Positions 22,290-41,127 of a stretch of DNA of 64,000 nucleotides are shown here, piece after piece. Below the pieces are notes generated by a model, which had not been told where the DNA came from, made no database searches, and saw nothing but the letters and a program-made list of their open reading frames with translations. Within the stretch, counting starts at the first letter, position 1. Each line of letters begins with the position of its first letter. Origin of the DNA: Acidobacteriota bacterium (GTDB lineage Bacteria > Acidobacteriota > Vicinamibacteria > Vicinamibacterales > Vicinamibacteraceae); NCBI GenBank assembly GCA_023418055.1, contig JAEZDP010000064.1, positions 687 through 64,686 on the forward strand, written 5' to 3'. The translations under genes and the position numbers were made by a program.

Positions 22290-23453
22290 TTACAGCGCCT
22301 TGAGCACCTCACCGAGCATGTGCCGTGCCCCTTCGACCCCGTCCCACGGGCCATCTTCGTACTCCAGCGCGATGATGCCCTTGAACCCGTGGTGGTTCAT
22401 GATGCGCACGCAGCGCTGCAGGTCCACGTTCTCCCAGCGGTCCCAGTACTTGGCGTGAACGGTCGTGTGCGTGTAGGGCATCACGGCCTCGAGGCCGTGG
22501 TAGAGCAGGTACTCGTGCTCCCAGTTGCAGAAGTCGGGTGACGCCTCGCAGTAGGGGTGGTTCACCTCGTCGAGGATGATCCGCATGTTGGTGGGATCGG
22601 CGCTCAGGCCCCAGTGGTTCTCGAGCGTCACCTTGACGCCGACCTTTCCGCCGTAGTCGGCCATCTCCTTGAACGACTCGATCGCGTTGGCCAGGTACTT
22701 GACGATCTCGTCGTTGCGCGGGTAGCCCGTCGTCGCGCTGGCCTGCGGGACGATGCGCGGGCCACCGGTGTTGACGCGCATCGTCTTGGCGCCGATGCGC
22801 GCCGAGCCGTCGAGCCACTTCTTCGCCACCTCGACGCCGGCCTTGCGCTCGGCCGCATCGAGCACCGAGATGTTGCGCGGGGCGTTGTTCGACACGTGGT
22901 GCACGAGCACCCCGGTCTTGGCGCAGTTGTTGGCGAGCGTGTCGAGCCAGGCCTTCGCGCTCGGCAGCGACGGGTCGAACTCGTAGACGGTGCGCGTCTG
23001 GCCGTTGCCCATCGTGACCTGTGTCTGCGCGTACATCGAGTCGTCGGTGACGTCGCCGAAGAGCGACGACCACACGTCGGTGTGCCACACGCCGGGGAAG
23101 TTGTCGCGCGTCCACTGCGGGTAGTCGAGCAGCGTGATCTCGCCGTACTTCTTCTTCATGGCGTCCGCGCGCGCCTGCGCCTCGGCGTTGCCGCCCATGC
23201 CTCCGCCCTGCCGCGGCCGCTGCTTGAACAGCGTGCGATGGGGGTAGGTGTTGGTCGCGATGCGCGCGAGCTTCTCCTGCTCGGTGAGCGGACGCTGGTC
23301 GACCGCAGTGGCCGCCGCCGCCTCGCGGCCCGCCAGGCCTCCGGCCAACAGGCCGCCTGCCAGCGCGGCGGTCGTACCCTTCAGGAAGTGCCGGCGCGCC
23401 GGATCGGAAGTCGTGGGGCGGTCCCCGTGATCGTGTCGTGTGGAATCAGTCAT
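22290..23453 (-). CDS. Xylose-isomerase-like TIM-barrel (sugar phosphate isomerase/epimerase family) protein with twin-arginine signal
   Basis: ATG 23453 (the track start at 23489 is TTG). ARRHFLKGTTAALAGGLLAGG is a TAT motif. The length and the C-terminal pattern (VTLENHWG...FKGIIALEYE) fit the AP-endonuclease-2/xylose-isomerase-like fold. Confidence 0.8.
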   Translation of the reverse strand: MTDSTRHDHGDRPTTSDPARRHFLKGTTAALAGGLLAGGLAGREAAAATAVDQRPLTEQEKLARIATNTYPHRTLFKQRPRQGGGMGGNAEAQARADAMKKKYGEITLLDYPQWTRDNFPGVWHTDVWSSLFGDVTDDSMYAQTQVTMGNGQTRTVYEFDPSLPSAKAWLDTLANNCAKTGVLVHHVSNNAPRNISVLDAAERKAGVEVAKKWLDGSARIGAKTMRVNTGGPRIVPQASATTGYPRNDEIVKYLANAIESFKEMADYGGKVGVKVTLENHWGLSADPTNMRIILDEVNHPYCEASPDFCNWEHEYLLYHGLEAVMPYTHTTVHAKYWDRWENVDLQRCVRIMNHHGFKGIIALEYEDGPWDGVEGARHMLGEVLKAL

Positions 23454-23671
23454 GGAGGGATCTGTCGTTGAAAAACGCGGATTGGCCAACGGAGTGATGA
23501 ACGACGCCCGGCACCCCGGCGTTTCGTGGAGAGCCGTCGGCTACGCCCAGGTGCGGCGCCGGTCCGGCCCGGCCGCGCCTGATATGCTGCGTCGCTGTAA
23601 GCGCACGGCGGCTGCCCGACGTAGAGGCCAGCGAACGTGTCGCGCCACTCCCCGGGAGACGAGGCCCCCGC

Positions 23672-24958
23672 ATGACCTCACTGTTACAGCGATTCTTCAA
23701 CGTCCGGCGTGAGGAAGTGGCGCCGCTGCTCGCCGCCGCCTTCTTCTTCTTCTGCGTGCTGACCGCGCTCATGATGCTGCGTCCCGTGCGCGACGCGCTC
23801 GGCATGCAGCGCGGCATCGAGGCCATCCGCTGGCTGTTCATCGGGACGGCAGTGATCACGCTGGCCGTCAACCCCGTTTTCGGCTGGCTGGTGAGCCGCT
23901 TCAGGCGCATCGTGTTCATCGCCGTCACGTACCTGTTCTTCGCGCTCAGCCTCGTGGGCTTCTGGGCCCTCATCGTGTTGACGCCGCAGGCGGTGGGCGA
24001 GACCAGCGGACAGGTCTTCTACGTGTGGTTCAGCGTGTTCAATCTGTTCAGCACGATGGTGTTCTGGGCGCTGATGGCCGACCGCTTCACCCTCGAGCAG
24101 AGCAAGCGCCTGTTCGGAGCCATCGCCGTGGGCGGCACGCTGGGCGCGATCGCCGGGCCCTGGCTGGCCACGATGCTCGCCGAGCCACTCGGCACGCCGA
24201 CGTTGCTGCTCGTGGCGGCCGGCTTCCTCGGATGCGCCATCGGCGCCGCCTGGCTCGTCACCCACCTGCAACCGTCGCCCGCACACGCCGGCGAACCTTC
24301 GGCAGCGGCTGCCGCAGACGACCGCGCGGTCATCGGCGGCAGTGCCTGGGAAGGCCTCGCCGCCGTGGCACGCTCGCCGTATCTCCTCGGCATCTCGGGC
24401 TACGTGCTCGTGATGACCGTGATGGCGACCTTCATCTACATGACGCGCCTGGCCATGGTCGATGCGCTCGGCGACACGGTGGACGAGCAGACGCGGATGT
24501 TCGCGCAGATCGATCTCTTCACCCAGGTCACCACCCTCGTGTTGCAGGGCCTCGTCACGGGCCACCTGATGAAGCGGTTCGGCGTCGCCGTGGCGCTGAT
24601 GATTCTGCCGGTCGTGGTCTCGCTCGGGTTCATCGGCCTGGCCATGGTGGGCTCATTTGCCGTGCTCATCGTGTTCGAGGCCACCTTCCGCGCCCTGCAG
24701 CGTGCCGTCACGCGCCCAGCTCGCGAGACGCTCTTCACCGTGGTGAGCCGCGAGGACAAGTACAAGTCGAAGGCCGTGACCGACACGTTCGTCTACCGCG
24801 GCGGCGACGTGCTCGGGGCCTGGACCGAAGGCGGCGTGCGTGCGCTCGGCTTCGCGCTGGCGGGACTGGCCTCGGTGGCCGTCCCCCTGGCGGTCATCTG
24901 GATGGGGCTGGGGGTCTGGCTGGGGCGGAAGCAGGAGGCGTTGCAGCAGTCGCGGTGA
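23672..24958 (+). CDS. MFS-type transporter resembling the Npt1/Npt2 (TLC, ATP:ADP antiporter-like) family
   Basis: 428 aa with about 11-12 TM helices. The N-terminal pattern (FNVRREEVAPLLAAAFFFFCVLTALMMLRPVRDALG) resembles TLC-family starts. The product call is tentative. Confidence 0.7.
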   Translation: MTSLLQRFFNVRREEVAPLLAAAFFFFCVLTALMMLRPVRDALGMQRGIEAIRWLFIGTAVITLAVNPVFGWLVSRFRRIVFIAVTYLFFALSLVGFWALIVLTPQAVGETSGQVFYVWFSVFNLFSTMVFWALMADRFTLEQSKRLFGAIAVGGTLGAIAGPWLATMLAEPLGTPTLLLVAAGFLGCAIGAAWLVTHLQPSPAHAGEPSAAAAADDRAVIGGSAWEGLAAVARSPYLLGISGYVLVMTVMATFIYMTRLAMVDALGDTVDEQTRMFAQIDLFTQVTTLVLQGLVTGHLMKRFGVAVALMILPVVVSLGFIGLAMVGSFAVLIVFEATFRALQRAVTRPARETLFTVVSREDKYKSKAVTDTFVYRGGDVLGAWTEGGVRALGFALAGLASVAVPLAVIWMGLGVWLGRKQEALQQSR

Positions 24959-26420
24959 CGTTGGCATGGACGGTCAGATCCGGCCGGCTGACGGCAGTGG
25001 CCGCCACCCCCTCGGCGGTCACGCCGGTGTTGCCTGCGTACACGGCCTGTAACGACCTGGCCGACGCCAGGTGCTCGAGTCCCGCGTCGGTGACCCGCGT
25101 GCCGTACACGTTGACCGACGACAGATGCTGGAGGCCGGCGACCGCGTCGAGGCGCGCGTCGGTCACCGCGGTGCGGTCGAGGTGCAGGCGGGTCAGGTGC
25201 GGAAAGCGCGCCAGCAGCGCGACTCCCTCGTCGGTGATGGCCGTCCCGCCCAGGTCCATCCACGTGATGTGAAGGGCCAGCGGCACCAGGGCTTCGAGTG
25301 CGGCATCGTCGAAGGCGACGCCGGAGCCTCGGGCCTCCACCTGGAGCCAGTCCACCCCTTCGGCCAGGCGGCTCACGGGCAGGCCTGACGCGGCCAGGCG
25401 GTCGAGGGTCGCGTCGTCGAGTGGACCAGCCTCCACGGCCAGCAGCGCCGGCCCGTCGAGCGACAGGTTGCCGACACGCACCTGGATGGCAGGCATCACC
25501 TCCGGCGCGATCTCCACGTCGGCGAGCGTGTGCGTGAACGACGCACCGGCGTCCACCCACCAGCGCAGGACGGAGGCGTCGGCCGCGGGCATCGGCGCGC
25601 TCGACTTGGGGGGCATCGCATCCTTGTGGACGGGCGGCAGCCACAGGCGCCTGATGAGGTCGCTGGCGTTGGCCTGGCCGGCCACGAGCACGGCGCCGGT
25701 GCGTCCGCCCGCCAGGATGGTGTCCGGGGTGTCGAGGCGGAGGTCGCCATTGGCCTTCGAGGGCCCGTGGCAATCGACGCAGTGCTCCTGCAGCACCGGC
25801 TTCACCAGCGCGTCGTACACGACCACCTGCGCGGGCTGGACGCTGCGCGCCTGGACCAGCGCCGACTCGGCGCCGAACCAGCGTGCGAAGGGTGCGGGGA
25901 GGCGCTCGGTGAGGTAGCCCTCCCCGTGGGTCAGGGTGCCGCCGAGATGGCCCACCAGTCCGAGCAGCACGACCCCGGCGGCGACCAGCACGTCCGACGC
26001 CGCCTGAAGACGCACGTCGCCACGACGCGACGCGCGCCAGGCGGACAGCGCCGCTGCGGCGGCGAGTGCCGCCACGACGTAGCCGAGCCGCTGGTGCCAG
26101 AGGAACGTGTCGCCGCCGTAGCCGCCCTCGGCCGAGAGGGCCTGCCCGGCCGCCACCGCCGCGACGGCGCCGAAGGCCGCCACCCCGAGCACCGGGACGA
26201 TGGCGCTGCGGGCCACGGCGTGCCGTCCGGACCGCGCCAGCCCCACGAGCACCGCCGCCGCGACGAGGGCGCCGATCGGGAGGTGGACCAGCGCCGGATG
26301 GAAACGCCCGACGAAGCCGACGAGCGCCATGCGCTCGCGCGGCCCGACGAGGACGGCCGCCGCCACGACGACCACGACGGCCAGCAGGGCCCAGGCCCAG
26401 CGCGGAAGGCGTCGGATCAC
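24894..26420 (-). CDS. Membrane protein: DUF2231-like 4-TM domain, PSCyt1-type CxxCH domain and leucine-rich repeats
   Basis: 508 aa; the GTG start overlaps the upstream stop (GTGA). FHPALVHLPIG is a DUF2231-like motif. KPVLQEHCVDCHGPSKANGDLRLD is the planctomycete cytochrome c motif. The C-terminal repeats are LRR-like: L..L.L.GT.VTD.GL..L (HITWMDLGGTAITDEGVALLARFPHLTRLHLDRTAVTDARL...). Confidence 0.8.
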   Translation of the reverse strand: MIRRLPRWAWALLAVVVVVAAAVLVGPRERMALVGFVGRFHPALVHLPIGALVAAAVLVGLARSGRHAVARSAIVPVLGVAAFGAVAAVAAGQALSAEGGYGGDTFLWHQRLGYVVAALAAAAALSAWRASRRGDVRLQAASDVLVAAGVVLLGLVGHLGGTLTHGEGYLTERLPAPFARWFGAESALVQARSVQPAQVVVYDALVKPVLQEHCVDCHGPSKANGDLRLDTPDTILAGGRTGAVLVAGQANASDLIRRLWLPPVHKDAMPPKSSAPMPAADASVLRWWVDAGASFTHTLADVEIAPEVMPAIQVRVGNLSLDGPALLAVEAGPLDDATLDRLAASGLPVSRLAEGVDWLQVEARGSGVAFDDAALEALVPLALHITWMDLGGTAITDEGVALLARFPHLTRLHLDRTAVTDARLDAVAGLQHLSSVNVYGTRVTDAGLEHLASARSLQAVYAGNTGVTAEGVAATAVSRPDLTVHANVTATAATPPASAPARPPAPSR

Positions 26421-27889
26421 GCGAGGAGTCCAGGCACCACGTGCCCGTGGACGTCGGTCAGGCGGTACCGGCGCCCCTGGTGCCTGAACGTCAGGCGCTC
26501 GTGGTCGACGCCGAGCAGGTGGAGCAGGGTGGCCTGGAAGTCGTGCACGTGGACGGGGTCACGCACGACGTTGTAGCCGAACTCGTCGGTCTCGCCATAC
26601 ACCGAGCCAGCCTTGACGCCGCCGCCGGCCATCCACACCGTGAAGCTGCGGGGATGGTGGTCACGCCCGTAGTTGTCCTTGGTGAGCTTGCCCTGCGAGT
26701 AGTTCGTGCGGCCGAACTCACCACCCCAGATGACCAGCGTGTCATCGAGCAGCCCGCGCTGCTTCAGATCCTGCACGAGCGCCGCGGACGCCTGGTCCAC
26801 CGACTTCGTCATGATCTGGATGTCCTTGGGCAGGTTGCCGTGCTGGTCCCAGCCCTGGTGATAGAGCTGAATGAAGCGGACGTCGCGTTCGGCGAGACGA
26901 CGCGCGAGCAGGCAGTTGGCCGCGTAGGTGCCGGGAATCCTGGCGTCCGGGCCATACATCTCGAACACGCTATCGGGCTCGTCGGCCACCGTCATCGACT
27001 CGGGCACCGAGGCCTGCATGCGGTAGGCCATCTCGTACTGCGCGATGCGGGCGTTGATTTCGGGATCGAGCACGCGGGCGTGCTGTTCCTCCTCGAGCGC
27101 GCGGAACGTGTCGAGCATGCGTCGGCGGCTCTCGCGGTCGAGCCCCGCCGGGTCGTTCAGGTACAGTACCGGGTCCTTGCCGCTGCGCACCTGCACGCCC
27201 TGATGTTGCGAGGGCAGGAAGCCGCTGCCCCAGAGGCGCGAGTAGAGCGGCTGATCGCCCGATCGCGCCCGCGACAACAGGACGATGAAGGCGGGCAGGT
27301 TCTGGTTCTCCGACCCGAGCCCGTAGGACAGCCACGAGCCCATGGCCGGCCGGCCGGCCAGCTGCGACCCCGTCTGCACGAAGGTCACGGCCGGGTCGTG
27401 GTTGATGGCCTCGGTGTAGAGCGAGCGGACGATACAGAGGTCGTCGACGATGCGCGAGGTGTGCGGCAGCAGGTCGCTCATCCAGGCGCCGCTCTGCCCG
27501 TACTGTGCGAACTCGAACTGCGAGCCGGCCAGCGGAAACGACTTCTGGTGGGCGGTCATGCCCGTGAGGCGCTGGCCCATGCGGATGGAGGCCGGCAGTT
27601 CCTCGCCGTTGAGCTGCCGCAGCTTCGGCTTGTGTTCGAACAGCTCGAGCTGCGACGGGCCGCCGCTCTGGAACAGGTAGATCACCCGCTTCGCGCGCGG
27701 CACCACGTGCCGCATGCCCGGCACGTGGGCGCTGCCGGCCGTGGCAGGCGCCGGCGACGCGCCCGCCTGGCCGAACAGCTGCATCGGATCGAGCAGCGAC
27801 CCCAGCGCCGCGCTGCCGAGCCCGAGGCTCGCGGCCGACAGGAAGTGCCGGCGGGTCGCGTTGAACTTGAGGTCGCGTAGTTCCTTCAT
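26417..27889 (-). CDS. DUF1501 domain protein (sulfatase/alkaline-phosphatase-like fold), twin-arginine signal
   Basis: 490 aa. RRHFLSAASLGLGSAALG is a TAT motif. The C-terminal GRDHHPRSFTVWMAGGGVKAG is typical of DUF1501. The start overlaps the upstream stop (ATGA). Confidence 0.9.
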   Translation of the reverse strand: MKELRDLKFNATRRHFLSAASLGLGSAALGSLLDPMQLFGQAGASPAPATAGSAHVPGMRHVVPRAKRVIYLFQSGGPSQLELFEHKPKLRQLNGEELPASIRMGQRLTGMTAHQKSFPLAGSQFEFAQYGQSGAWMSDLLPHTSRIVDDLCIVRSLYTEAINHDPAVTFVQTGSQLAGRPAMGSWLSYGLGSENQNLPAFIVLLSRARSGDQPLYSRLWGSGFLPSQHQGVQVRSGKDPVLYLNDPAGLDRESRRRMLDTFRALEEEQHARVLDPEINARIAQYEMAYRMQASVPESMTVADEPDSVFEMYGPDARIPGTYAANCLLARRLAERDVRFIQLYHQGWDQHGNLPKDIQIMTKSVDQASAALVQDLKQRGLLDDTLVIWGGEFGRTNYSQGKLTKDNYGRDHHPRSFTVWMAGGGVKAGSVYGETDEFGYNVVRDPVHVHDFQATLLHLLGVDHERLTFRHQGRRYRLTDVHGHVVPGLLA

Positions 27890-30800
27890 CGTGTGTGCAC
27901 CGCTTCGTCGAGATTCATGATCGTGCTGGTCACCACCGTCCAGGCCGCGACATCGACAGGGTCGAGCGACGGATCGCGCGGACGGTCACCGGTGGTCAGC
28001 AGGGCGGCTGCCGCATCGGGGTCGTCTTCGAATCGTGTACGTTCGGTGTCGTGCAGGCGCATCAGGTGCGAGACCTCCGATGGGGTGGGCGCACGGCTGA
28101 TCACGCGGCGGAAGGCATAGGCCGCGCGAGCCGGGTCGTCGGCCTCGTGGCGCACGACGTCTTCGGCGAGCACGCGGGCGCTCTCCACGTACTGCGGGTC
28201 GTTGAGCAGCACGAGGGCCTGCAGCGGCGTGTTGGTGCGCTGTCGTGTCACCGTGCACACCAGACGCTCCGAGGCGTCGAAGCTGATGGCCGACGGCGGC
28301 GGCGCGGCACGTTTCCACGCCGTGTAGAGGCTGCGGCGATAGAGGCCGTCGCCCGTGGACTGCGGGTAGCGGTTGCTGGAGGCCAACGCTTCCCAGATCC
28401 CGGGCGGCTGGTAGGGATAGACGCTCGGACCGCCGATCGCCCGGTGCAGCAACCCGCTGCTGGCCAGCGAGGCGTCGCGTATCTGCTCGATGGGCATCCG
28501 GAAGGACGGTCCCCGCGACAGCCACCGGTTGTCGGGATCCGCCTCGCGGTGCGCGGCATCGACGGCGCTGGCCTGCCGGTACGTCGCCGAGGTGACGATG
28601 AGCCGGTGCAGCGCCTTGCCGTCCCACCCCGACGACACGAAGGTCGTGGCGAGCCAGTCGAGCAGCGCCGGATGGGTGGGCAACTCGCCCTGGCTGCCGA
28701 AGTCGTCCGCGCTGGGCACCAGGCCCCGGCCGAAGGCCGCCGCCCAGTAGCGGTTGACGAAGACGCGCGCCGTGAGCGGCTGCTCGGGGGCGAGGAGCCA
28801 GCGGGCCAACCCCAGGCGATTCTTCGGCAGCGACTCGTCGAAGGGCAGGATCGCCGCGGGCGTGCCCGGGCGCACTGGTTCGGTGGGCGCGTCGTAGGCG
28901 CCTCGCGCGAGGACGAAGGTGGGACGCGGTTCCGGCAGTTCGCGCATCGCCATCACGCTCGGCTGCGCCGTCCAGATCGTGTTCTCCTCGCCCCGCACCT
29001 CGGTCAGGCGCGCCAGGCGTGACGCGAACGTCGCGTCCGCTCGTCGCACGTACAGCTCCCGCAATGCGGTCCGCTGGGCCGGCGTCCGGGAGGTCGCCGG
29101 GACGGCGAGGATGCGATCGAGGGCGTCGGGCCTGCCGCCGAGCGCCTCCACCTCGATCGCGGGAAGCGTTCGCGCATACACGCGGAAGTCGTCGACGGAG
29201 ACGTCGCGGAGCGTCTCCTTGCTCAGCTCGCCGACGCCGCCAATCCGCAGGCTCAACGGCCGACCCGACATCTGGTTGCCCTCGATGCCGCTGGTGATGA
29301 TGCTGCGCTGCAGGTTGTCCACCACTGTGAGCGTGTCGGCCGCCTGGCCGTCGAGATACAGGCGCAGCCCCGCCGCGCGGCTCGAGCCGTCGTAGGTGAG
29401 CGTCAGGTGACGCCAGACGCCCGGTGCCACGGGCGTCCGGGTCCGGATGGCGATCGAGTCGTCGGGCGCCACGTGGTGGAGCGCTGCCGAAAGCGTGCCG
29501 TCGGGCTCGAGGCGCACCAGGTAGCCGCGGAACCCGTTGGCAAAGCCACCCGACCGCGAGAACAGCGGCCCGGACGTGCCCGCCTCGTCGACGCGGAACC
29601 AGAGGCCCACGGAGAACGACTGGTGTCTGTCGAAGAACCCCACGCCGTCGGGGGCGTGGATCTCGCTATCGCCCTGGAGGCGCATGGCGCCTGCGATCCG
29701 GCCTTCCACGGCGACAGGCTGTCGGTCGAGGTCGCCGCCCAGCATGCCGACGGTCTTCGGGGCGGCCAGGTTGCTGAACGTGTACTGGCGCGGCGGCGGG
29801 CCTGTCCGCGGGCCGGCTCCGCGGGGCGCCGCACGCGACTGCATGTCGTCGAGCGGCAGGTGCAGCACGAGCCCGTCCGCGGACGGCAGCGACGTACGCG
29901 CAGCGCGGCCGGCCAGCCAGGCGTCGAAGCCCGCGTCGTACTCGGGCGATTCAATCGACGTCTCCGCTTCCAGGGCGCGTCGCTCCGTGGACAGGTCGGC
30001 CAGCCGGGCCTCGGCCTCGGTCGACGGCAGAATCACGGTGGGGCTCGGCATGCCCGAGTAAGGCGCCTGTCCTGCTTCGTTGATGCTGTTGAAGAAGGCG
30101 AAGAGCTCGAAGTATTCCTTCTGCAGCACCGGGTCGTACTTGTGGTCGTGACACCGCGCGCAGTCCAGGCTCATGCCCAGAAAGGCCTGCCCGAAGGTCT
30201 GGACCCGGTCCGCCACGTACTCCACCCGGTACTCCTCGGGGACAATCCCGCCCTCCTGACTCTGCATGTGGTGCCGGTTGAACCCCGTGGCCAGCCGTTG
30301 CTCACGCGTGGCGTTGGGCAGCAGATCGCCGGCAAGCTGCCAGGTGATGAACTCGTCCACCGGCATGTTCCGGTTGTAGGCGGCAATCACCCAGTCGCGC
30401 CACGGCGACATGTCGCGCATCACATCGTCCTGATACCCGTGCGAGTCGGCATAGCGGGCGATGTCGAGCCAGTCGGCGGCCATCCGCTCGCCGTAGGCCG
30501 GGGAGGCCAGCAGCCGGTCGACCACGCGTTCGTAGGCATCCGGTGACGTGTCGGCCAGAAACGCGTCAACCTCCTCGACGGTCGGCGGCAGTCCGGTGAG
30601 CGCCAGCGAGACACGGCGGATGAGCGTCTCTTTCGGGGCCTCGGCGGCGGGCTCGAGCGTGCGGTCCGCCAGCGTCGCCTGCACGAAGTGGTCGATCGGA
30701 TTGCGCGCCACGGCGTGCGCGGGCAGCGGCGGCACGTCGGGCATTGCCGGAGGGGTGAAGGCCCAGTGCGGCTTCCACTCGGCCCCCTGGTCGATCCACC

Positions 30801-31173
30801 GGATGAGCAGCGCCTTCTCGTAGTCGGACAGGGTCAGGTGCGAGTCGGGCGCGGGCATCATCACGGCGGGGTCGTCGCTGAGGATGCGGCGGACGAGGTC
30901 GCTGCGGCCCGGGCTCCCGGGGACGATAGCGGTGGCCCCGGAGGCGAGGCGCGCAAACGCACTCTCGGCCTCGTCGAGCCGCAGGTCGGTCTTGCGGCTG
31001 CCGCCGTCAGGGCCGTGGCACTTGAAACAGCGGTCCGAGAGGATGGGCTTGACGTGCAGGGCGAAGTCCACCTGCTCGGGCAGGCTGTCCACCTGGGGCC
31101 CGGGCACGTCGCATCCCCACGCCAGACCGAGGACGAGCGACAGCGCCGCCCCTCGGGCCCCCGCCCACCTCAT
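27886..31173 (-). CDS. PSCyt1/PSCyt2(DUF1549)/LamG/PSD1(DUF1553) multidomain protein, paralog 1
   Basis: ATG 31173 overlaps the upstream paralog's stop (ATGA). The signal peptide ends ...LGLAWGC. Motifs: HVKPILSDRCFKCHGPD (CxxCH), CARCHDHKYDP, a LamG-like insert (FSVGLWFRVD...LTLTYDGSSRAAGLRLYLDG) and a PSD1-like C-terminus (LLNDPQYVE). Confidence 0.9.
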   Translation of the reverse strand: MRWAGARGAALSLVLGLAWGCDVPGPQVDSLPEQVDFALHVKPILSDRCFKCHGPDGGSRKTDLRLDEAESAFARLASGATAIVPGSPGRSDLVRRILSDDPAVMMPAPDSHLTLSDYEKALLIRWIDQGAEWKPHWAFTPPAMPDVPPLPAHAVARNPIDHFVQATLADRTLEPAAEAPKETLIRRVSLALTGLPPTVEEVDAFLADTSPDAYERVVDRLLASPAYGERMAADWLDIARYADSHGYQDDVMRDMSPWRDWVIAAYNRNMPVDEFITWQLAGDLLPNATREQRLATGFNRHHMQSQEGGIVPEEYRVEYVADRVQTFGQAFLGMSLDCARCHDHKYDPVLQKEYFELFAFFNSINEAGQAPYSGMPSPTVILPSTEAEARLADLSTERRALEAETSIESPEYDAGFDAWLAGRAARTSLPSADGLVLHLPLDDMQSRAAPRGAGPRTGPPPRQYTFSNLAAPKTVGMLGGDLDRQPVAVEGRIAGAMRLQGDSEIHAPDGVGFFDRHQSFSVGLWFRVDEAGTSGPLFSRSGGFANGFRGYLVRLEPDGTLSAALHHVAPDDSIAIRTRTPVAPGVWRHLTLTYDGSSRAAGLRLYLDGQAADTLTVVDNLQRSIITSGIEGNQMSGRPLSLRIGGVGELSKETLRDVSVDDFRVYARTLPAIEVEALGGRPDALDRILAVPATSRTPAQRTALRELYVRRADATFASRLARLTEVRGEENTIWTAQPSVMAMRELPEPRPTFVLARGAYDAPTEPVRPGTPAAILPFDESLPKNRLGLARWLLAPEQPLTARVFVNRYWAAAFGRGLVPSADDFGSQGELPTHPALLDWLATTFVSSGWDGKALHRLIVTSATYRQASAVDAAHREADPDNRWLSRGPSFRMPIEQIRDASLASSGLLHRAIGGPSVYPYQPPGIWEALASSNRYPQSTGDGLYRRSLYTAWKRAAPPPSAISFDASERLVCTVTRQRTNTPLQALVLLNDPQYVESARVLAEDVVRHEADDPARAAYAFRRVISRAPTPSEVSHLMRLHDTERTRFEDDPDAAAALLTTGDRPRDPSLDPVDVAAWTVVTSTIMNLDEAVHTR

Positions 31174-34100
31174 CGCAGGTACACCGAGGCGTCGAGGTTG
31201 TAAATCGTGTGCGCAACGATCGCCCATGCGGCCATGCTATCAAGTTCGGGCGTGGTCGCGAGGGCGCGTTCGCCCGTGCTGAGCAGGGCTCGGGCGGCCT
31301 GCGGGTCGCCGGCGAAGCGGGCACGCTCTGTCTCGTAAAGACTCACCAGCCGGGCCACCGCCTGCGGGGTCGGCTGCTGACTCGTCACCCGCCGCACGGC
31401 GTAGACGACGCGCGCCTCCGCGCTGTCGCCACCCTCACGCAGGATGTGCTCGGCCAGGGTCCGCGCGCTTTCCACGTACTGCGGGTCGTTCATCAGCACC
31501 AGGGCCTGAAGCGGCGTGCTCGTCCGCTGTCGGTTGACGATGCACGCGAACCGTTCGGAGGCGTCGAAGCTGATGGCCGACGGCGGCGGCGTGGACCGCT
31601 TCCAGACCGTGTACAGGCTGCGGCGATACAGATCGTCGCCGGTGCCCTGGGTGTACGAGGTGGCGTTGCGCGTCGCCAACTCTTCCCAGAGCCCTTCCGG
31701 CTGGTACGGGTAGACGCTGGGGCCGCCGATGGTGGGCACGAGCAGGCCGCTGCTGGCCAGGGCGGCATCACGAATCTGCTCGGCCGACAGTCGGTAGGAC
31801 GGTCCTCGCGCCAGCCACTCGTTCTCCGGGTCGCGGTCGCGCTGCGTGGCCTCGACCGCCGACGACTGGCGATAGGTGGCCGACAGCACGATGCGCTTGT
31901 GGAGGGCCTTCAGGTCCCAGCCCGACTCGATGAACGTCACGGCGAGCCAGTCGAGCAGATCGGGATGACTGGGCAGCCGCCCCTGGCTGCCGAAGTCGTC
32001 GGGCGTCGGCACCAGGCCGCGGCCGAAGAGTGAGGCCCACACGCGGTTGACGAACACGCGTGCCGTCAACGGGTGGGACGGGTCGGTGAGCCACCTGGCC
32101 AGGCCCAGCCGGTTGCCGGACGCTCCCTCGGGCAGCGGCGGGAGGAAGGAGGGCGTCGCCGGGCTCACCGGCGTGGTGGGAGCATCGTAGGCGCCGCGCG
32201 CGAGGATGAACGTGGGGCGCGGCTGGGGCAACTCGCGCATCACCATCACCTCGAGTTGCGAGGTCAGCAACTCGTTCTCCTCCGCGCGGACTGCTGTGAG
32301 TGCCTGGAGCGCGCGACGGTAGGCAGGGGCCTGCCGCTGCACGTAGTGTTGCCGAAGGCGCTTGTGCTGGGTGGGCGACCGGTCGGCCGGCGCCAGGGCC
32401 AGAAGCCCGGCCAGTGGGTCGTCCTCGCCGGCAAGGTGCTGCACCTCGAGATCCGTCAGCGCCGTCTCGAAGAGGCGGAACTCGTCCACCGACACGTCCT
32501 GGAGCGTCACCTCACCGAGCCGCCCGATGCGCAGGCTGCCAATACCACCCCAGGACTGGTTCGTCGGGATGCCGCTGTTGATGATGCTGCGCTGCAGGTT
32601 GTCCACGAGGACGCGTACGGGCATCTCGGCGCCATCGAGCCACAACCTGAGGCCCGCCGCGCGGCTCGACCCGTCGTACACGAACGCGAGATGGTGCCAG
32701 GCCCCGGGGGCGAGTGCCTGCTCGGTGACGACCTCGATCGAGTTGTCGGGGTAGACGTGGTGCAGCCAGGCATTCAGGCGGCCATCGGGCTGCACCATCA
32801 CGGCATAGCCCCGGTAGCCGTCCGCACTGCCGCCCGACCGAGCAAACAGCGGGCCGGCTGTACCGGCCGCGTCGACGCGAACCCACACCGACACCGAAAA
32901 CGGCTGGTGCCGGTCGAAGACGCCCAGCTTGTCCGGAAGCTGCAGGTGGCTGTCGCCGACGAGCCGCAGCGCGCCATCCAGCCGGCCGTCCACCGCGATC
33001 GGAACGCGGTCGGGGTCGCCGCCGAGTGTCGCGGGAGACGCCTGGGCATTCGTATTGGTCAGCAGCAGCTTTCGCGTGGTACGCGCCGGCCGCTTCGGGT
33101 CGGGCCGTTCGGTGACCATCCGCGGCGTGAACGCATCGAGCGGCAGGTGCGCGAGCAGGCCGGGTGGTGGGGCCAGACGTGCATTCCCCGCCAGCCAGGC
33201 CTGATACCCCGCGTCGTACGTGGGCGCATCGACATCCACGTCCGCCTCGAGCGTCGCCCGACGGTCGCGAAGCGTCGTCAGCTGCGTCTCGGCTTCGTGG
33301 CTGGGCAGCAGCAACGTGGGGCTCGGCATGCCCGAGTAGGGAATCTGCCCGGCCTCGTTGTTGCTGTTGAAGAACGCAAACAACTCGAAATATTCCTTCT
33401 GCAGCACCGGGTCGTACTTGTGGTCGTGGCAGCGCGCGCACTCGAGCGAGACGCCGAGGAACGCCTTGCCGAAGGTGTCCACGCGGTCGGCCACGTATTC
33501 CACGCGGTATTCCTCGGGGACGATACCGCCTTCCTGGCTCTGCTGATGATGCCTGTTGAAGGCCGTGGCCAGCCGCTGCTCGCGCGTGGGGGAGGGCAGC
33601 AGGTCGCCGGCGAGTTGCCAGGTGATGAACTCGTCGATCGGCAGGTTCTCGTTGAAGGCCGAGATGACCCAGTCGCGCCACGGCCACATCGGCCGCATGC
33701 CGTCGTCCTGGTAGCCGTGCGAGTCGGCGTACCGCGCCAGATCGAGCCAGTCCACGGCTCGACGCTCGCCGTAGGCCGGGGACGCCAGCAGGCGATCGAC
33801 GACGCGCTCGTACGCGTCGGGCGACGTGTCGGCGAGGAACGCATCGAGTTCCTCGAGCGTGGGGGGCAGGCCCGTGAGCGCCAGCGACACCCGTCGTAAC
33901 AGCGCCTCGCGTGGCGCCTCAGCCGCAGGCTGCATGCCCTGCTCGCGTAGCCGCGCCCGCACGAACCTGTCGATGTCGGTCGTGGCAGGTGCATCCGATC
34001 CGGCCACCGGCACCGCGGGTTTCACCGGGGCGGTGAACGCCCAATGGGGCTTCCACTCGGCACCCTGATCGATCCACTTGATGAGCAGCGCCTTCTCGTA

Positions 34101-34505
34101 GTCGTTCAGCGTCAGGTGCGACGACGGGGCAGGCATCATCACCGCGGGATCGTCGCTGAGGATGCGACGGACCAACTCACTGCGGCGGGGCCATCCCGGC
34201 ACCACCGCGCGGACGCCGGAGGGCAGCGTGGCGAACGGCCCATGCTCCGTGTCGAGCCGCAACCCGGCCTGACGCACGGCATCGTCGGGACCGTGACACT
34301 TGAAGCAGCGGTCCGAGAGAATGGGCTTGACGTGGAAGTTGTAGTCGACGCGGTCGGGGAGCTCAGCGACCTGCGGGCCAGGCCGTCCGCAGCCCCACGA
34401 CAGCAGGACGACACACAGCCACACCCCGACCCACGCCGGCATCCTCGGCAGACACCAGCGCCGCGCGAGCGGCGAGGCCGTGCGGAGGGGTCCCACGGGC
34501 AGCAT
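31170..34505 (-). CDS. PSCyt1/PSCyt2(DUF1549)/LamG/PSD1(DUF1553) multidomain protein, paralog 2
   Basis: Same architecture and long identical peptide runs with paralog 1. The start is ATG 34505 (overlapping the glsB-like stop, TGATG) or ATG 34442 (MPAWVGVWLCVVLLSWGC). The track's 5' extension to 34835 overlaps the glsB-like gene and is rejected. Confidence 0.85.
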   Translation of the reverse strand: MLPVGPLRTASPLARRWCLPRMPAWVGVWLCVVLLSWGCGRPGPQVAELPDRVDYNFHVKPILSDRCFKCHGPDDAVRQAGLRLDTEHGPFATLPSGVRAVVPGWPRRSELVRRILSDDPAVMMPAPSSHLTLNDYEKALLIKWIDQGAEWKPHWAFTAPVKPAVPVAGSDAPATTDIDRFVRARLREQGMQPAAEAPREALLRRVSLALTGLPPTLEELDAFLADTSPDAYERVVDRLLASPAYGERRAVDWLDLARYADSHGYQDDGMRPMWPWRDWVISAFNENLPIDEFITWQLAGDLLPSPTREQRLATAFNRHHQQSQEGGIVPEEYRVEYVADRVDTFGKAFLGVSLECARCHDHKYDPVLQKEYFELFAFFNSNNEAGQIPYSGMPSPTLLLPSHEAETQLTTLRDRRATLEADVDVDAPTYDAGYQAWLAGNARLAPPPGLLAHLPLDAFTPRMVTERPDPKRPARTTRKLLLTNTNAQASPATLGGDPDRVPIAVDGRLDGALRLVGDSHLQLPDKLGVFDRHQPFSVSVWVRVDAAGTAGPLFARSGGSADGYRGYAVMVQPDGRLNAWLHHVYPDNSIEVVTEQALAPGAWHHLAFVYDGSSRAAGLRLWLDGAEMPVRVLVDNLQRSIINSGIPTNQSWGGIGSLRIGRLGEVTLQDVSVDEFRLFETALTDLEVQHLAGEDDPLAGLLALAPADRSPTQHKRLRQHYVQRQAPAYRRALQALTAVRAEENELLTSQLEVMVMRELPQPRPTFILARGAYDAPTTPVSPATPSFLPPLPEGASGNRLGLARWLTDPSHPLTARVFVNRVWASLFGRGLVPTPDDFGSQGRLPSHPDLLDWLAVTFIESGWDLKALHKRIVLSATYRQSSAVEATQRDRDPENEWLARGPSYRLSAEQIRDAALASSGLLVPTIGGPSVYPYQPEGLWEELATRNATSYTQGTGDDLYRRSLYTVWKRSTPPPSAISFDASERFACIVNRQRTSTPLQALVLMNDPQYVESARTLAEHILREGGDSAEARVVYAVRRVTSQQPTPQAVARLVSLYETERARFAGDPQAARALLSTGERALATTPELDSMAAWAIVAHTIYNLDASVYLR

Positions 34506-34765
34506 CAGGCCGTGCGCGATTTCCCGACGGTCATGCGGTAGATGACGAGCAGGAGAATGGCGCCGAGGATGGACATGATCCAGCCGGCCGGTTCGCCCTG
34601 GGCGTACCACCCGAGTGCCTGACCCAGGTAGGTGGCCACCAGCGCGCCCGCCATGCCGAGCAGCATCGTGACGAGGATGCCGCCAGGGTCCTTTCCGGGC
34701 ATGACGAGTTTGGCGATGGCCCCAACGATGAGCCCGACGATGACGGTGGACAGCAACGCGATCAT
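34505..34765 (-). CDS. GlsB/YeaQ/YmgE-family (transglycosylase-associated) small membrane protein
   Basis: 86 aa: MIALLSTVIVGLIVGAIAKLVMPGKDPGGILVTMLLGMAGALVATYLGQALGWY.... GGAAGGAG precedes ATG 34765. It is the C-terminal part of track ORF 34505..35110. Confidence 0.85.
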   Translation of the reverse strand: MIALLSTVIVGLIVGAIAKLVMPGKDPGGILVTMLLGMAGALVATYLGQALGWYAQGEPAGWIMSILGAILLLVIYRMTVGKSRTA

Positions 34766-34874
34766 GAGCGTCTCCTTCCGCGAACGTGACGCACCAGCCT
34801 GAGCAGCGTGAAGCCTCGATCCTAACACCGTCCACGACACAAGGCGGTCTGACGCTCGTGTAGGATGAGGGGCC

Positions 34875-35417
34875 ATGACGACCCTCCTCCGTCCTCTTTC
34901 TACTCCTCTCGTGCTTGCGGTTTCATTGCTCGTCCTGTCGGCCCCGTCGTTGCTGGCACAACCTGCCATCGGCACCGCGCCGGCCATCGCGGCCAAGGTC
35001 AGCCAACTCGACTTCATCGCAGGCCCCTGGACCGGCACGCTCGGCGATCGCACCATCGAGCAGCACTGGAGTGCGCCGCTCGGCAACTCGATGGTGGCCA
35101 TGTACCGCAACGTCCAGGACGGCGAGGTGCGCCTCTACGAGTTGCTCGTGATGGAACAGGAGGGCGAGGGCATCGCGCTGCGCATCAAGCACTTCGCTCC
35201 GGGCGCCGGTCTCGTCGGCCGGCAGGAGAAGGACGTGTCGGTGGATCACCGGCTGGTGGCGCTGAAGCAGCAGTCGGCCGTGTTCGAAGGCACGGGGCCG
35301 AACCCGACGCGCGTGACCTTCACGCGTACGTCGCCCCAGGCGCTGGTCATCCGCGTGGAGCGCATGCGCGACGGCGCCCTCACAGGCACCGACTTCAATT
35401 ACCGTCGCCTGGAGTAG
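34875..35417 (+). CDS. Secreted protein of unknown function (DUF6265-like)
   Basis: 180 aa with a signal peptide (LVLAVSLLVLSAPSLLAQ). The lipocalin-like pattern FIAGPWTG...EQHWS...MYR...RIKHF is recalled from DUF6265. Confidence 0.65.
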   Translation: MTTLLRPLSTPLVLAVSLLVLSAPSLLAQPAIGTAPAIAAKVSQLDFIAGPWTGTLGDRTIEQHWSAPLGNSMVAMYRNVQDGEVRLYELLVMEQEGEGIALRIKHFAPGAGLVGRQEKDVSVDHRLVALKQQSAVFEGTGPNPTRVTFTRTSPQALVIRVERMRDGALTGTDFNYRRLE

Positions 35418-35435
35418 CCACAGGCGCAGGGGGAC

Positions 35436-35457
35436 GGCGTTGCGCTGGCGCAACGCC
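35436..35457 (+). terminator. GC-rich hairpin downstream of the 34875..35417 gene
   Basis: GGCGTTGCGC-TG-GCGCAACGCC, with perfect 10-nt arms, lies 19 nt after the TAG. There is no U-tract, so intrinsic-terminator function is uncertain. Confidence 0.35.
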
Positions 35458-35521
35458 ACAGGCGGCGGCGCGGCGATAGGCTGACGACGGATGTGGGGAA
35501 TGGCTCCCCGCTTCGTCGAGG

Positions 35522-35878
35522 ATGCCCATGACTCCGTCCGCCCCCGCCCTCCCTCCTGCCGAGGCCCTCGCCCTGCTGTCGCTCATCACAAAGACGCCCA
35601 ACGGCATCGCCAGCCGCGTCCTCTCGCGGACCGGCGGCGGCAACCTGACCCTCTTTGCCTTCGATGCCGGCCAGGGGCTCACCGAGCACACCTCGCCGTT
35701 CGATGCCCTGGTGCTGGTGCTCGAGGGCGCCATGACGCTGACGATCGACGGCGCGCCGGTTACGGCCACCCCAGGCACCATCGTGCGGATGCCAGCCGGC
35801 GTGCCGCATGCGCTCGACGCCGCCGAGCCCACCGTGATGCTGCTCGTGATGTTGCGAGACACGAAGGCGCAGGGTTGA
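35522..35878 (+). CDS. Cupin domain protein
   Basis: 118 aa. GLTEHTSPFDALVLVLEGAMTLTIDG...GTIVRMPAGVPHAL matches the two cupin motifs. Confidence 0.8.
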   Translation: MPMTPSAPALPPAEALALLSLITKTPNGIASRVLSRTGGGNLTLFAFDAGQGLTEHTSPFDALVLVLEGAMTLTIDGAPVTATPGTIVRMPAGVPHALDAAEPTVMLLVMLRDTKAQG

Positions 35879-35939
35879 GGGTGCGGCGCTTACAGAACTC
35901 TCACAGTGGGTCTCGCCGCGGCCATGGGACCATGCCGCG

Positions 35940-38826: not shown

Positions 38827-38839
38827 GCGACTCCTCCGC

Positions 38840-41127
<2,288 letters not shown>

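Follow-up and report, generated by a model that had tools for sequence, protein, structure and literature searches.

At positions 24,894-34,765 of a 64,000-nt stretch of acidobacterial DNA (contig JAEZDP010000064.1; the whole stretch is referred to here as the window), five open reading frames on the minus strand encode a small membrane protein (g5), two giant proteins with haem-binding motifs (g4 and g3), a DUF1501 protein (g2) and a membrane protein with leucine-rich repeats (LRRs; g1), and the question is whether they work together and, if so, at what (Table 1). The window shows its greatest similarity to Vicinamibacteria (Acidobacteriota) and not to Planctomycetes. According to the sequence and its translations no intergenic DNA lies between the five genes. 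The first-pass annotation had described the genes as joined by overlapping stop and start codons, and all four overlaps (TGATG, ATGA, ATGA and GTGA) can be read in the sequence, the first of them placing the start of g4 at 34505, not 34507. The operon has a single Shine-Dalgarno sequence, GGAAGGAG (34772-34779, minus strand), located 6 nt ahead of the g5 ATG; none was seen on inspection of the sequence at the starts of g4, g3, g2 and g1, as expected under translational coupling. A sigma-70 consensus promoter was not detected on the minus strand upstream of g5, in a search that is uninformative at 70% GC. On the basis of the four overlaps and the single Shine-Dalgarno sequence the five genes constitute one tightly packed unit, and very probably all five are co-transcribed and translationally coupled.

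Table 1. Genes, junctions and domains of the locus (nucleotide positions are those of the window; residues are those of the encoded protein).
Feature	Position	Strand	Description	Basis
Divergent intergenic region	34766..34874		Upstream of g5 and of the plus-strand DUF6265 gene starting at 34875	Sequence; DUF6265 by Pfam
g5	34505..34765	minus	86-aa GlsB/YeaQ/YmgE (Transgly_assoc) small membrane protein, first gene of operon	
g5/g4 junction	TGA stop 34507-34505, ATG 34505-34503	minus	TGATG	Sequence
g4	31170..34505	minus	1111-aa giant: PSCyt1, PSCyt2, Laminin_G_3 insert, PSD1	
g4/g3 junction	31173-31170	minus	ATGA	Sequence
g3	27886..31173	minus	1095-aa giant: PSCyt1, PSCyt2, Laminin_G_3 (501-675), PSD1 (785-1039)	
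g3/g2 junction	27889-27886	minus	ATGA	Sequence
g2	26417..27889	minus	490-aa DUF1501 protein with twin-arginine signal (TRRHFL, R13 R14)	
g2/g1 junction	26420-26417	minus	GTGA	Sequence
g1	24894..26420	minus	508-aa inner-membrane protein	Pfam, hydropathy, AF2
g1 N-terminal TM anchor	Residues 8-26	minus		Hydropathy
g1 4-TM DUF2231 domain	Residues 40-166, nt 25923-26303	minus		Pfam
g1 periplasmic PSCyt1 cytochrome c domain	CVDCH 214-218, Met269, nt 25605-25781	minus		Pfam, motif
g1 LRRs	Residues ~345-480, nt 24981-25388	minus	~4-5 GALA-type repeats	Profile and Foldseek

Short same-strand overlaps are common in high-GC genomes, and the five-gene operon might be an accident of compact packing among functionally unrelated neighbours on one strand. 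For g5 such a reading has some appeal: the protein matches PF04226 (55.5 bits, cut-off 25.3; NCBIfam PRK10457 below its cut-off) and contains three hydrophobic segments, but GlsB is not conserved with the other genes. A GlsB gene was found only in relative L089 and was absent from relative L001 (65% identical) and from all of the 80 genome loci, making it a lineage-specific addition at the front of the operon. The remaining genes present a different picture. The position of the LRR protein as a conserved neighbour of DUF1501 had been set beforehand as one of the points on which the first-pass annotation could fail, and it held: a DUF1501 gene lies within 10 kb of the g1 relative in 69 of the 80 species genomes that carry one. 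In 64 of those 69 it shares the strand of the g1 relative and is upstream of it, immediately next to it in 24, beyond a single inserted ~1-kb gene in 39 and at a distance of 5.2 kb in one. Among the 11 loci without DUF1501, eight have less than 2.5 kb of upstream DNA, which is too short to judge. Conversely, the 1.30 Mb of flanking DNA contains 71 DUF1501 genes, of which 68 are within 4.5 kb of g1. At least five bacterial phyla, among them Acidobacteriota, Bacteroidota, Gemmatimonadota and Verrucomicrobiota, possess the triad of g1, giant and DUF1501 (most of the relatives found belong to Bacteroidota). It occurs in the order g1-giant-DUF1501 in four loci and in another order in Gemmatimonadales and a Luteitalea MAG, frequently with an inserted TIM-barrel gene (31 loci) or NHL propeller gene (19 loci), and also with a rhamnose mutarotase gene. 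The g1 architecture is not rare, its family comprising 2291 cluster representatives at 50% identity (E<=1e-30).

Distances between the DUF1501 proteins and the giants are closely correlated (Mantel r 0.96, p 0.001), and less so those between g1 and DUF1501 (0.69) or g1 and the giants (0.72; both p 0.001); these correlations partly reflect shared species phylogeny, and the giant and DUF1501 genes appear to co-diversify almost perfectly and g1 moderately. The retention of the triad across five phyla despite changes in gene order and in the inserted genes, its linkage in the flanks and its co-diversification leave chance packing very improbable indeed for the locus, and for the three core genes that reading is effectively refuted already. 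Solitary g1 relatives exist, for example in a polysaccharide-synthesis locus of Rhodothermales (L004), Luteitalea sp. TBR-22 has a close g3-like giant without an adjacent DUF1501 gene, and g1 identity is only slightly higher within DUF1501 types (0.38) than between them (0.32). These observations, of which the solitary genes would also suit unrelated neighbours, count against the mechanism favoured below. The conserved unit comprises three genes plus an optional fourth rather than five, neither GlsB nor the second giant being general. By its predicted products, the three-part core combines a giant lipoprotein bearing haem motifs, an exported protein resembling metalloenzymes and a cytochrome c that has LRRs and is anchored in the membrane.

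The domains predicted by the first-pass annotation are all present in Pfam searches, except that the LRRs were established by profile and structure matches rather than by LRR_6, and a motif scan recovered CFKCHGPD and CARCHDHKYDP in both giants and CVDCHGP in g1. In the giants, PSCyt1, PSCyt2 and PSD1 (PF07635, PF07583 and PF07587) follow in that order with scores above the gathering thresholds (51.5, 291.7 and 327 bits in g3; 54, 289.1 and 338.1 bits in g4), together with Laminin_G_3 (LamG; PF13385; 62 and 71.8 bits, cut-off 27.6), the only part of the giants with a solved relative (PDB 4qvs, E 6.7e-5). The CFKCH motif occupies residues 49-53 of g3, with Met106-Pro107 distal to it, and residues 67-71 of g4, and CARCHDHKYDP begins at residues 338 and 356, respectively. 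At least 95% of 62 giants conserve C49, C52, H53, M106, P107, C338, C341, H342, H344, D347 and P348 (g3 numbering), so that the second CxxCH-x-H site, in PSCyt2, is conserved across the giants as well. The signal peptides end in a Cys (LAWG-C in g3, LSWG-C in g4), where W at -2 is atypical for a lipobox; [AGS]-C followed by G/S-x-P-G-P is found in all 30 of the giant orthologues listed, and both giants are probable lipoproteins. g3 represents the main orthologue, being ~70-79% identical to its closest database relatives, of which the named ones are Vicinamibacteria/Acidobacteria, whereas g4 is a more diverged tandem paralogue (64.5% identical to g3) with an orthologue, P0275, in L001. The two tandem LamG-containing paralogues of about 1100 residues that had been noted at first pass are therefore real, but the tandem pair is limited to the sub-clade of the window; it represents a sub-clade duplication whose copies show their greatest differences within and next to LamG. 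Many Bacteroidota have shorter, type-1 giants without this domain.

g2 matches PF07394 over profile positions 1-389 of 390 (526.8 bits, cut-off 27) and carries a Tat signal, S/T-R-R-x-F-L-K plus a hydrophobic stretch, in the form TRRHFLSAASLGLGSAALGSLL. In a 25-sequence alignment (A3), R13 and R14 do not vary and F16 is at least 90% conserved, and all three are at least 95% conserved in 65 DUF1501 sequences, as are G76, P78, S79, Q80, T159, N163, H164, D348, H350, E391, D410 and H411; most of these residues are fully invariant in A3. In a profile search against structures, 12 of the 13 weak matches were alkaline-phosphatase-superfamily members (NPP, LtaS and sulfatases), all over residues 342-468 and none significant (E 0.04-0.9). 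The motifs that supply the metal ligands in NPP (D..GH, SDHG) and in sulfatases align with the segment D348-x-H350 ... E391-F-G-R ... D410-H411; g2 is a putative metalloenzyme of this superfamily. PhoX is Tat-exported, and Tat export is likewise predicted for DUF1501, which differs from the superfamily in being obligately paired with a haem-motif protein and in the E-values of its similarity, none of them significant. A formylglycine-dependent sulfatase of the S1 class was ruled out for g2 by the lack of the C/S-x-P-x-R motif in a motif scan (best sulfatase E 0.15-0.9); at the site of that motif, after strand 1, g2 has G76-x-P78-S79-Q80. The first-pass description of g2 as a Tat-exported, sulfatase-fold protein is thus upheld for the signal, the fold coming down to a weak and consistent similarity.

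It could be argued that the locus encodes a hydrolytic scavenging machine without electron flow, in which DUF1501 would hydrolyse esterified glycans in the way of a sulfatase or phosphatase, the giants would serve as scaffolds that use LamG to bind or present the substrate, the haem domains would have a structural role or be redox or ligand sensors, and g1 would be a mere inner-membrane tether working through its LRRs. The weak, consistent resemblance of DUF1501 to NPP, LtaS and sulfatases and the LamG insert fit such a machine, as do the neighbouring genes in L091 (sulfatase, GH2 and sulfate-type ABC transporter), the sulfatases in six loci, and the report that sulfatase genes often adjoin PSCyt genes, which carry CBM domains (He et al., 2017). 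The lack of the formylglycine motif speaks against it, and so does the CxxCH plus Met signature, which is invariant or nearly so in all three PSCyt1 domains and across five phyla and is hard to explain if purely structural. Judged by this signature and by homology, the PSCyt1 domains can be classified as Class I-type c cytochromes with predicted haem attachment, and the conservation of CxxCH and Met-Pro in giants and g1 relatives suggests that the haem sites are under selection.

The first-pass annotation had recognized g1 as a membrane DUF2231-CxxCH-LRR protein with four TM segments; the domain fusion stands, and the TM total is five, the N-terminal anchor preceding the four of DUF2231 (PF09990; 40.7 bits, cut-off 26.4). 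PSCyt1 scores 53.8 bits in Pfam, and this region of the g1-family profile matches the structure of the FoxE c-cytochrome (5mab, E 2.5e-7). The LRRs fall short in Pfam (LRR_6, 19 bits, cut-off 23.4), but they are confirmed by matches of the g1-family profile to GALA/F-box LRR structures (best, GALA LRR 9j7j, E 1.9e-24) and of the AF2 model to NLRP1/ribonuclease-inhibitor LRRs (Foldseek E 6e-6), and are followed by a Pro/Ala-rich C-terminal tail. Two AF2 models were made (pLDDT 85.1 for the full length, 93.6 for the DUF2231 part), and the latter gives DUF2231 four long helices (46-64, 70-96, 103-133 and 136-165). H41, P42, H46, P48, H109 and G160 are invariant in both A1 and A2, and C214, C217, H218, M269, P270 and P271 in A1 (30 relatives). 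H158 and H165 are at least 90% conserved, and with H41, H46 and H109 they all lie at the periplasmic ends of TM1, TM3 and TM4, in a topology derived from hydropathy and charge. g1 lacks a cytoplasmic domain, its cytoplasmic loops being ~7-13 aa, and its relatives include proteins in which DUF2231 is followed by two to six PSCyt1 domains or by two to three PSCyt1-LRR units. Five conserved histidines facing the periplasm are not needed in a plain tether, and a row of cytochrome domains behind DUF2231 is typical of an electron conduit; a purely hydrolytic machine consequently seems rather unlikely.

We tentatively favour, as the leading reading, an enzyme complex in the periplasm that g1, as a cytochrome-LRR adaptor, would wire to the inner membrane. 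The giant lipoprotein would contribute its N-terminal c-type haem domain PSCyt1, PSCyt2 with the second CxxCH-x-H site, PSD1 and, in this subtype, the lectin-like LamG insert; the Tat-exported DUF1501 protein would be its obligate, alkaline-phosphatase-superfamily-like partner. DUF2231 would present its histidine cluster at the periplasmic face of a four-helix bundle, followed by the cytochrome domain and the short LRR, which may dock the giant/DUF1501 pair so that the g1 haem could exchange electrons, in either direction, with the haem or haems of the giant. DUF2231 itself may hold a cofactor, haem b or a metal being a guess since it has no significant structural neighbour, and/or contact the quinone pool or respiratory chain, and would in this way link the active-site chemistry of the giant/DUF1501 pair to electron transport in the membrane. 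LamG would help to bind the substrate, probably a compound that derives from carbohydrate or is esterified (sulfated or phosphorylated). The single envelope complex proposed at first pass is thus one that we would also infer. The conserved periplasmic histidines, the lack of a cytoplasmic domain and the multi-PSCyt1 relatives argue for DUF2231 as a redox anchor; LamG and the TIM-barrel, NHL, rhamnose mutarotase, sulfatase and GH2 neighbours for a carbohydrate context; and the Tat motif of DUF1501 and the lipobox-like Cys of the giants for an envelope location. On the other hand, conserved histidines that are all on one side of the membrane poorly fit a classical two-haem transmembrane relay, and enzymes of the alkaline phosphatase superfamily normally catalyse hydrolysis or group transfer rather than redox reactions, which leaves a need for electrons unexplained.

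The same histidines would also suit a dedicated assembly or maturation factor, in which DUF2231 handles haem or a metal on the periplasmic side, much as CcmC/CcmF do, while the LRRs hold the giant or DUF1501 during cofactor insertion or oxidative modification of an active-site residue. No PDB sequence matches to the DUF2231 part were found by profile search and no significant structural neighbour by Foldseek (best E 0.05, a designed helical bundle); the only thematically coherent weak matches handle or bind haem, namely CcmC (E 0.16, TMq 0.52), CcmF, cytochrome bd and NOX5, none of them significant. That g1 is the last gene of the operon and co-diversifies more loosely than the giant/DUF1501 pair would agree with such a role, but a chaperone has no need of a c-type haem domain of its own, relatives with several PSCyt1 or PSCyt1-LRR units resemble conduits or adaptors rather than maturases, and most of the giant/DUF1501 pairs described in PVC bacteria are without such a partner, so that a maturation factor appears improbable. 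The known membrane cytochrome b and quinol-dehydrogenase folds (NarI, CybB, NapC and NrfD) were rejected for DUF2231, which showed no significant match to them and has its histidines only on the periplasmic side.

Modules of DUF1501 with PSCyt1/PSCyt2/PSD1 proteins, with or without LamG, have been described in Planctomycetes and Verrucomicrobia, including a four-gene cluster of DUF1501, a PPC-like protein, PSCyt1-Big_2-PSCyt2-PSD1 and PSCyt1-WD40, and electron transport was inferred for them (Kamneva et al., 2012; PMC3542564). They share with the present locus a DUF1501 protein with a Tat or other signal peptide beside a PSCyt1-PSCyt2-(Laminin_G_3)-PSD1 giant, an additional protein that combines PSCyt1 with a protein-interaction repeat, and the suspected electron transport. 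The present locus, in contrast, belongs to an acidobacterium and lacks a PPC-like gene, and as third partner it encodes an integral membrane protein (DUF2231 four-TM bundle plus anchor) with LRRs instead of WD40. DUF2231 is not mentioned in that article, the text of which contains neither "transmembrane" nor "leucine", and a literature search for DUF2231 returned nothing related to the DUF1501/PSCyt module. The link of a membrane DUF2231-PSCyt1-LRR partner to the pair described in 2012 hence appears to be unreported.

The LRRs of g1 share the 24-residue repeat LxxLxLxxTxVTDxGL with those of the GALA/F-box (CC-type) proteins (Ralstonia RipG4, 9j7j; FBXL2, 6o60) and of ribonuclease inhibitor/NLRP1, from which they differ in number (~4-5), in their predicted periplasmic location and in their fusion to a cytochrome c and a membrane domain. 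Membrane-anchored c-type cytochromes such as NapC/NirT/CymA, or CbcL with its b-type domain and multihaem c domain, link the quinone pool to periplasmic enzymes. g1 differs from these in having a single predicted haem c, conserved histidines on the periplasmic side only and an LRR docking domain, and from NapC/CymA and known cytochrome b folds in the absence of a significant Foldseek or sequence match. It resembles them in the arrangement of a membrane module followed by a periplasmic haem c domain and in being encoded together with its putative periplasmic partner enzyme, and the likeness extends to its relatives with their chains of cytochrome domains.

The operon lies on the minus strand in the order g5 (GlsB-like), g4 and g3 (two giants of ~1100 aa), g2 (DUF1501) and g1 (DUF2231-PSCyt1-LRR), and its junctions (TGATG, ATGA, ATGA and GTGA) can be read directly, in agreement with the first-pass annotation, which had described five genes with overlapping stop and start codons. 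A Shine-Dalgarno sequence, GGAAGGAG, is found before g5 only, 6 nt from its ATG, and the junction sequences read at the starts of g4, g3, g2 and g1 lack one, as is expected under translational coupling. The operon begins at g5, since the divergent DUF6265 gene starts just beyond it, and ends at g1, since a convergent MFS gene overlaps the 3′ end of g1. Three related loci preserve this overlap, which there spans 53-68 nt (L001, 11472-11524; L089, 11493-11560; L090, 6766-6830), and the Pro/Ala-rich g1 tail (…PPASAPARPPAPSR) encoded in it is conserved among close homologues.

Features of the operon and its surroundings (positions in the window)
Feature	Position	Strand	Remark
Tat-signal xylose-isomerase-like TIM barrel (AP_endonuc_2)	22290-23489	-	two genes downstream of operon
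MFS gene	23672-24958	+	
g1/MFS convergent overlap	24894-24958	g1 -, MFS +	65 nt
Five ORFs g5-g1	24894-34765	-	ORF calls and translations
g2/g1 junction	26420-26417	-	GTGA; direct sequence reading
g3/g2 junction	27889-27886	-	ATGA; direct sequence reading
g4/g3 junction	31173-31170	-	ATGA; direct sequence reading
g5/g4 junction	stop 34507-34505, ATG 34505-34503	-	TGATG; direct sequence reading
DUF6265, cupin and NMO-like (nitronate monooxygenase family) genes	34875-37376	+	divergent from operon
Molybdopterin oxidoreductase (~830 aa, Fe4S4 domain) gene, then 4Fe-4S dicluster subunit gene	38170-41332	-	

The start codons are backed by independently called homologues with matching lengths, P0245 (1095 aa) and P0273 (1111 aa), and the N-terminal alignment of g1 homologues agrees with the called start. 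A 1221-aa ORF on the minus strand (31170-34835) was rejected as g4: it runs 110 codons upstream of the real start, through GlsB in a different frame, and the ATG at 34505 matches P0273 and gives an N-terminal signal peptide and lipobox. With ~70% G+C, the window abounds in spurious long extensions of ORFs and in antisense ORFs of >300 aa. A scan of the minus strand for promoter and terminator consensus sequences found none and is uninformative at this composition; an Rfam scan of 23000-36500 returned no RNA element.

Pfam assigns Transgly_assoc to g5, PSCyt1-PSCyt2-Laminin_G_3-PSD1 to both g4 and g3, DUF1501 to g2, and DUF2231 with PSCyt1 to g1, and so recovers above cut-off every domain previously named except the LRR. 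The LRR array of g1 nevertheless stands despite its sub-cut-off Pfam score, as the g1-family profile matches GALA-type LRR structures (E 1.9e-24) and the AlphaFold2 (AF2) model matches NLRP1/RI LRRs in Foldseek (E 6e-6). The motifs CFKCHGPD, CARCHDHKYDP and CVDCHGP were all found. NCBIfam gave nothing above cut-off for the five proteins, and PDB sequence and profile searches returned nothing for PSCyt2, PSD1 or DUF2231, a solved relative existing only for the LamG part (Laminin_G_3) of the giants.

The nearest named homologues belong to Luteitalea and Vicinamibacterales (Acidobacteriota), at 57-70% identity for the giant and 45-47% for g1, and the locus was therefore rejected as one of Planctomycete origin. 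Among syntenic relatives, L089 carries all five genes including GlsB, L001 the four larger genes without GlsB, and L090 at least the last giant, DUF1501 and g1. Where its contig ends, L090 also has a truncated ORF overlapping the start of this giant, probably the tail end of a second one. Only one giant is present in the more distant Vicinamibacteria L006, L007 and L009. Scanning one genome per species for g1 relatives gave at least 283 positive genomes, and the best 80 loci kept were mostly from Bacteroidota (Dyadobacter, Sphingobacterium, Pedobacter, Maribacter, Arenibacter, Chitinophagaceae and others), the remainder including some Acidobacteriota, Gemmatimonadota, Verrucomicrobiota and Planctomycetia. 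When 1.84 billion representatives were searched exhaustively with phmmer, 2291 g1-family proteins reached E<=1e-30, and among the best matches listed most are 450-540 aa and aligned over their whole length, which indicates that the g1 architecture is common.

Window proteins were compared by tblastn with these best 80 of at least 283 loci. DUF1501 lies within 10 kb of g1 in 69 of the 80. It is upstream on the same strand in 64, with a gap of <300 nt in 24, one inserted gene of ~1 kb in 39 and a 5.2-kb gap in one; four loci have the order g1-giant-DUF1501, and in one (L051) DUF1501 is upstream on the opposite strand. In eight of the 11 loci lacking DUF1501, the upstream DNA covers <2.5 kb. The loci also provide an internal control: the 1.30 Mb fetched contain 71 DUF1501 genes, of which 68 are within 4.5 kb of g1 and three elsewhere; 58 of these 71 have a PSCyt/PSD1 giant immediately upstream. 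A Gemmatimonadales MAG shares the permuted order, and a Luteitalea MAG has the standard order beside sulfatase and GH2 genes. One exception is a solitary Rhodothermales g1 relative inside a polysaccharide-synthesis locus. Distances between DUF1501 and giant proteins correlate strongly (Mantel r 0.96, p 0.001), and those of g1 moderately with DUF1501 (r 0.69) and with the giant (r 0.72; both p 0.001), part of these correlations being due to species phylogeny; g1 identity is only modestly higher within (0.38) than between (0.32) DUF1501 types. Accidental adjacency of the three core genes is effectively excluded, and g1 is the conserved neighbour of DUF1501 that had been proposed.

All-against-all ORF clustering yielded only five recurrent families, namely g1, DUF1501, the giant, an AP_endonuc_2 TIM barrel (31 loci) and a Tat-signal NHL beta-propeller (19 loci), and GlsB was found in none of the 80 loci. 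The conserved unit is thus three genes (the triad of giant, DUF1501 and g1) plus an optional fourth; of the five-gene unit of the first-pass annotation the triad stands, whereas GlsB and the second giant are lineage-specific. Ulvibacterium marinum (L045, L054) has two separate triads per genome, each with its own g1 (41% identical to each other), and in a Rhodothermales MAG (L008) three DUF1501 genes and two giants lie in tandem upstream of one g1.

Among 62 giant sequences, the PSCyt1 CxxCH and Met-Pro, the PSCyt2 motif C338-x-x-C341-H342-x-H344-x-x-D347-P348, and many Arg, Asp and Glu residues of PSCyt2 and PSD1 are conserved in at least 95%. The giants of the window's clade may be lipoproteins, as their signal peptide terminates in [AGS]-Cys with G-x-P-G-P after it. 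Overall, g3 and g4 are 64.5% identical; by domain, identity falls from PSCyt2 (83%) through PSCyt1 (76%) and PSD1 (71%) to LamG (59%), with 38-57% in the flanking linkers, so that the presumptive binding insert has diverged most. The duplication is older than the split between the window and L001, where g3 pairs with P0247 (79% identity) and the counterpart of g4 is P0275. Cultured Luteitalea sp. TBR-22 (AP024452.2; L086, 10001-15620) is another exception to the linkage: its g3-like giant, 70% identical, has neither DUF1501 nor g1 in its neighbourhood, and downstream of it lie an AraC-type HTH gene, an ECF-type sigma factor and a 430-aa protein.

The Tat motif is conserved in the DUF1501 family. 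Further conserved residues comprise G76, P78, S79, Q80, T159, N163, H164, D348, H350, E391, D410 and H411. As to the suggested sulfatase fold, a weak alignment places the D348-H411 region on the metal-ligand motifs of NPP, LtaS and sulfatases, and 12 of 13 weak profile hits (E 0.04-0.9) are alkaline-phosphatase-superfamily members, but the formylglycine motif of sulfatases is absent from g2. A rival reading takes the system to be a purely hydrolytic machine for which g1 is a tether.

Hydropathy, the positive-inside rule and the AF2 model predict for g1 an N-in anchor helix (residues 8-26), four DUF2231 helices and a periplasmic C-terminal cytochrome and LRR; the cytoplasmic loops of ~7-13 residues imply that there is no cytoplasmic output domain. 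H41, P42, H46, P48, H109, H158, G160 and H165 are (near-)invariant among 30-39 homologues. Each is found at the periplasmic end of TM1, TM3 or TM4, and together they resemble a site for a cofactor or metal on the surface of the membrane, beside the haem c domain with its invariant C214, C217, H218 and M269-P-P. The PSCyt1 region of the family profile matches the FoxE c-cytochrome (E 2.5e-7). The LRR dominates Foldseek matches of full-length g1; a separate model of DUF2231 (pLDDT 93.6) has no significant PDB neighbour, weak matches to CcmC, CcmF, cytochrome bd and the NOX5 membrane domain serving as a lead only. A search with DUF2231 alone gave only 12 short proteins and no useful fusions, which were obtained instead by a Pfam scan of long hits from the representative search. 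After DUF2231, longer relatives have 2-6 PSCyt1 domains or two or three PSCyt1-LRR units, and others have LRR, F5/8-type-C and CHB_HEX_C domains, an arrangement typical of electron conduits or adaptors anchored in the membrane; such modular expansions include P0095, P0097, P0104, P0145 and P0140. That g1 is instead an assembly or maturation factor is a further rival reading.

The best-supported reading, in which complex formation, haem loading, electron flow with its direction, and the substrate all enter conditionally, is a periplasmic complex of one or more giant haem lipoproteins, their obligate partner DUF1501 (a putative metalloenzyme) and g1. The g1 LRR would hold the giant/DUF1501 pair at the inner membrane, the g1 haem and the giant would exchange electrons, and DUF2231 would add another cofactor, link the complex to the quinone pool or respiratory chain, or do both. 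The substrate may be carbohydrate-derived or esterified, as suggested by the LamG insert, by TIM-barrel, NHL-propeller and rhamnose-mutarotase genes that recur, and by sulfatase and GH2 neighbours in some loci. More speculatively, and less likely than not, DUF2231 could be an unrecognised cofactor-binding membrane redox module (haem b, metal or quinol site); the DUF2231-cytochrome c-LRR family would then be the adaptor, missing so far, through which specific DUF1501/PSCyt-PSD1 pairs connect to the respiratory chain. If so, this very large 'dark' system would carry out a redox-coupled transformation of glycan-derived substrates in the periplasm, not simple hydrolysis.

In the Luteitalea MAG (L091, 3343-17553), sulfatase and GH2 genes precede the triad, a 647-aa protein follows it, and a sulfate/molybdate-type ABC transporter adjoins it on the opposite strand, a possible hint of sulfated glycans. 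The AP_endonuc_2 gene of the window is syntenic in L001 and L089; tblastn gave no match between it and the TIM barrel that separates DUF1501 from g1 in 31 Bacteroidota loci, so a shared family was rejected, and the window holds no NHL-propeller homologue either. The DUF6265-cupin-NMO-like run is syntenic in L001, its DUF6265 gene also in L089, and did not emerge as a recurrent family in the remaining loci. The molybdopterin oxidoreductase genes make up a redox enzyme locus of their own, ~3.5 kb away from the operon.

Few protein families without an assigned function are as expanded in Planctomycetes and Verrucomicrobia as DUF1501 and the PSCyt/PSD1 giants, which also occur widely in Bacteroidota and Acidobacteriota. 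For particular giant/DUF1501 pairs, the dedicated membrane partner with its cytochrome and LRR domains is a concrete, testable handle, predicting a physical inner-membrane complex and electron exchange, with candidate residues for mutation in the CxxCH motifs, DUF2231 (H41, H46, H109, H158, H165) and DUF1501 (D348, H350, E391, D410, H411). The triad is present in cultured Bacteroidota (Dyadobacter, Sphingobacterium, Arenibacter, Maribacter, Tamlana), mostly with a single DUF1501 in the ~20 kb fetched, and genetic work may be easier there than in Planctomycetes. The separate families and the giant/DUF1501 pairing were already known and abundant; the conserved partner, its periplasmic histidine cluster and the cultured carriers make an old question experimentally approachable.

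In the searchable literature, which includes few subscription journals, DUF2231 (PF09990) appears in only two unrelated papers and no paper combines DUF1501 with DUF1553, neither being proof of novelty, and no function is given for DUF1501 or the giants. PSCyt architectures with carbohydrate-binding modules have been catalogued and sulfatase neighbours noted, nothing being known of PSCyt function (He et al., 2017; PMC5615132). Planctomycetes have many DUF1501 loci; DUF1501 has been described beside PSCyt1/PSCyt2/PSD1 proteins with or without Laminin_G_3, as has a four-gene cluster with a PSCyt1/WD40 protein, and the authors pointed to a system lacking explanation and suggested electron transport targeted to the membrane, of unknown function (Kamneva et al., 2012; PMC3542564). 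The module is thus already known, and the link documented here across phyla is that to a membrane partner: where that cluster has a soluble PSCyt1-WD40 protein, the present unit has instead a membrane-integral DUF2231-PSCyt1-LRR protein.
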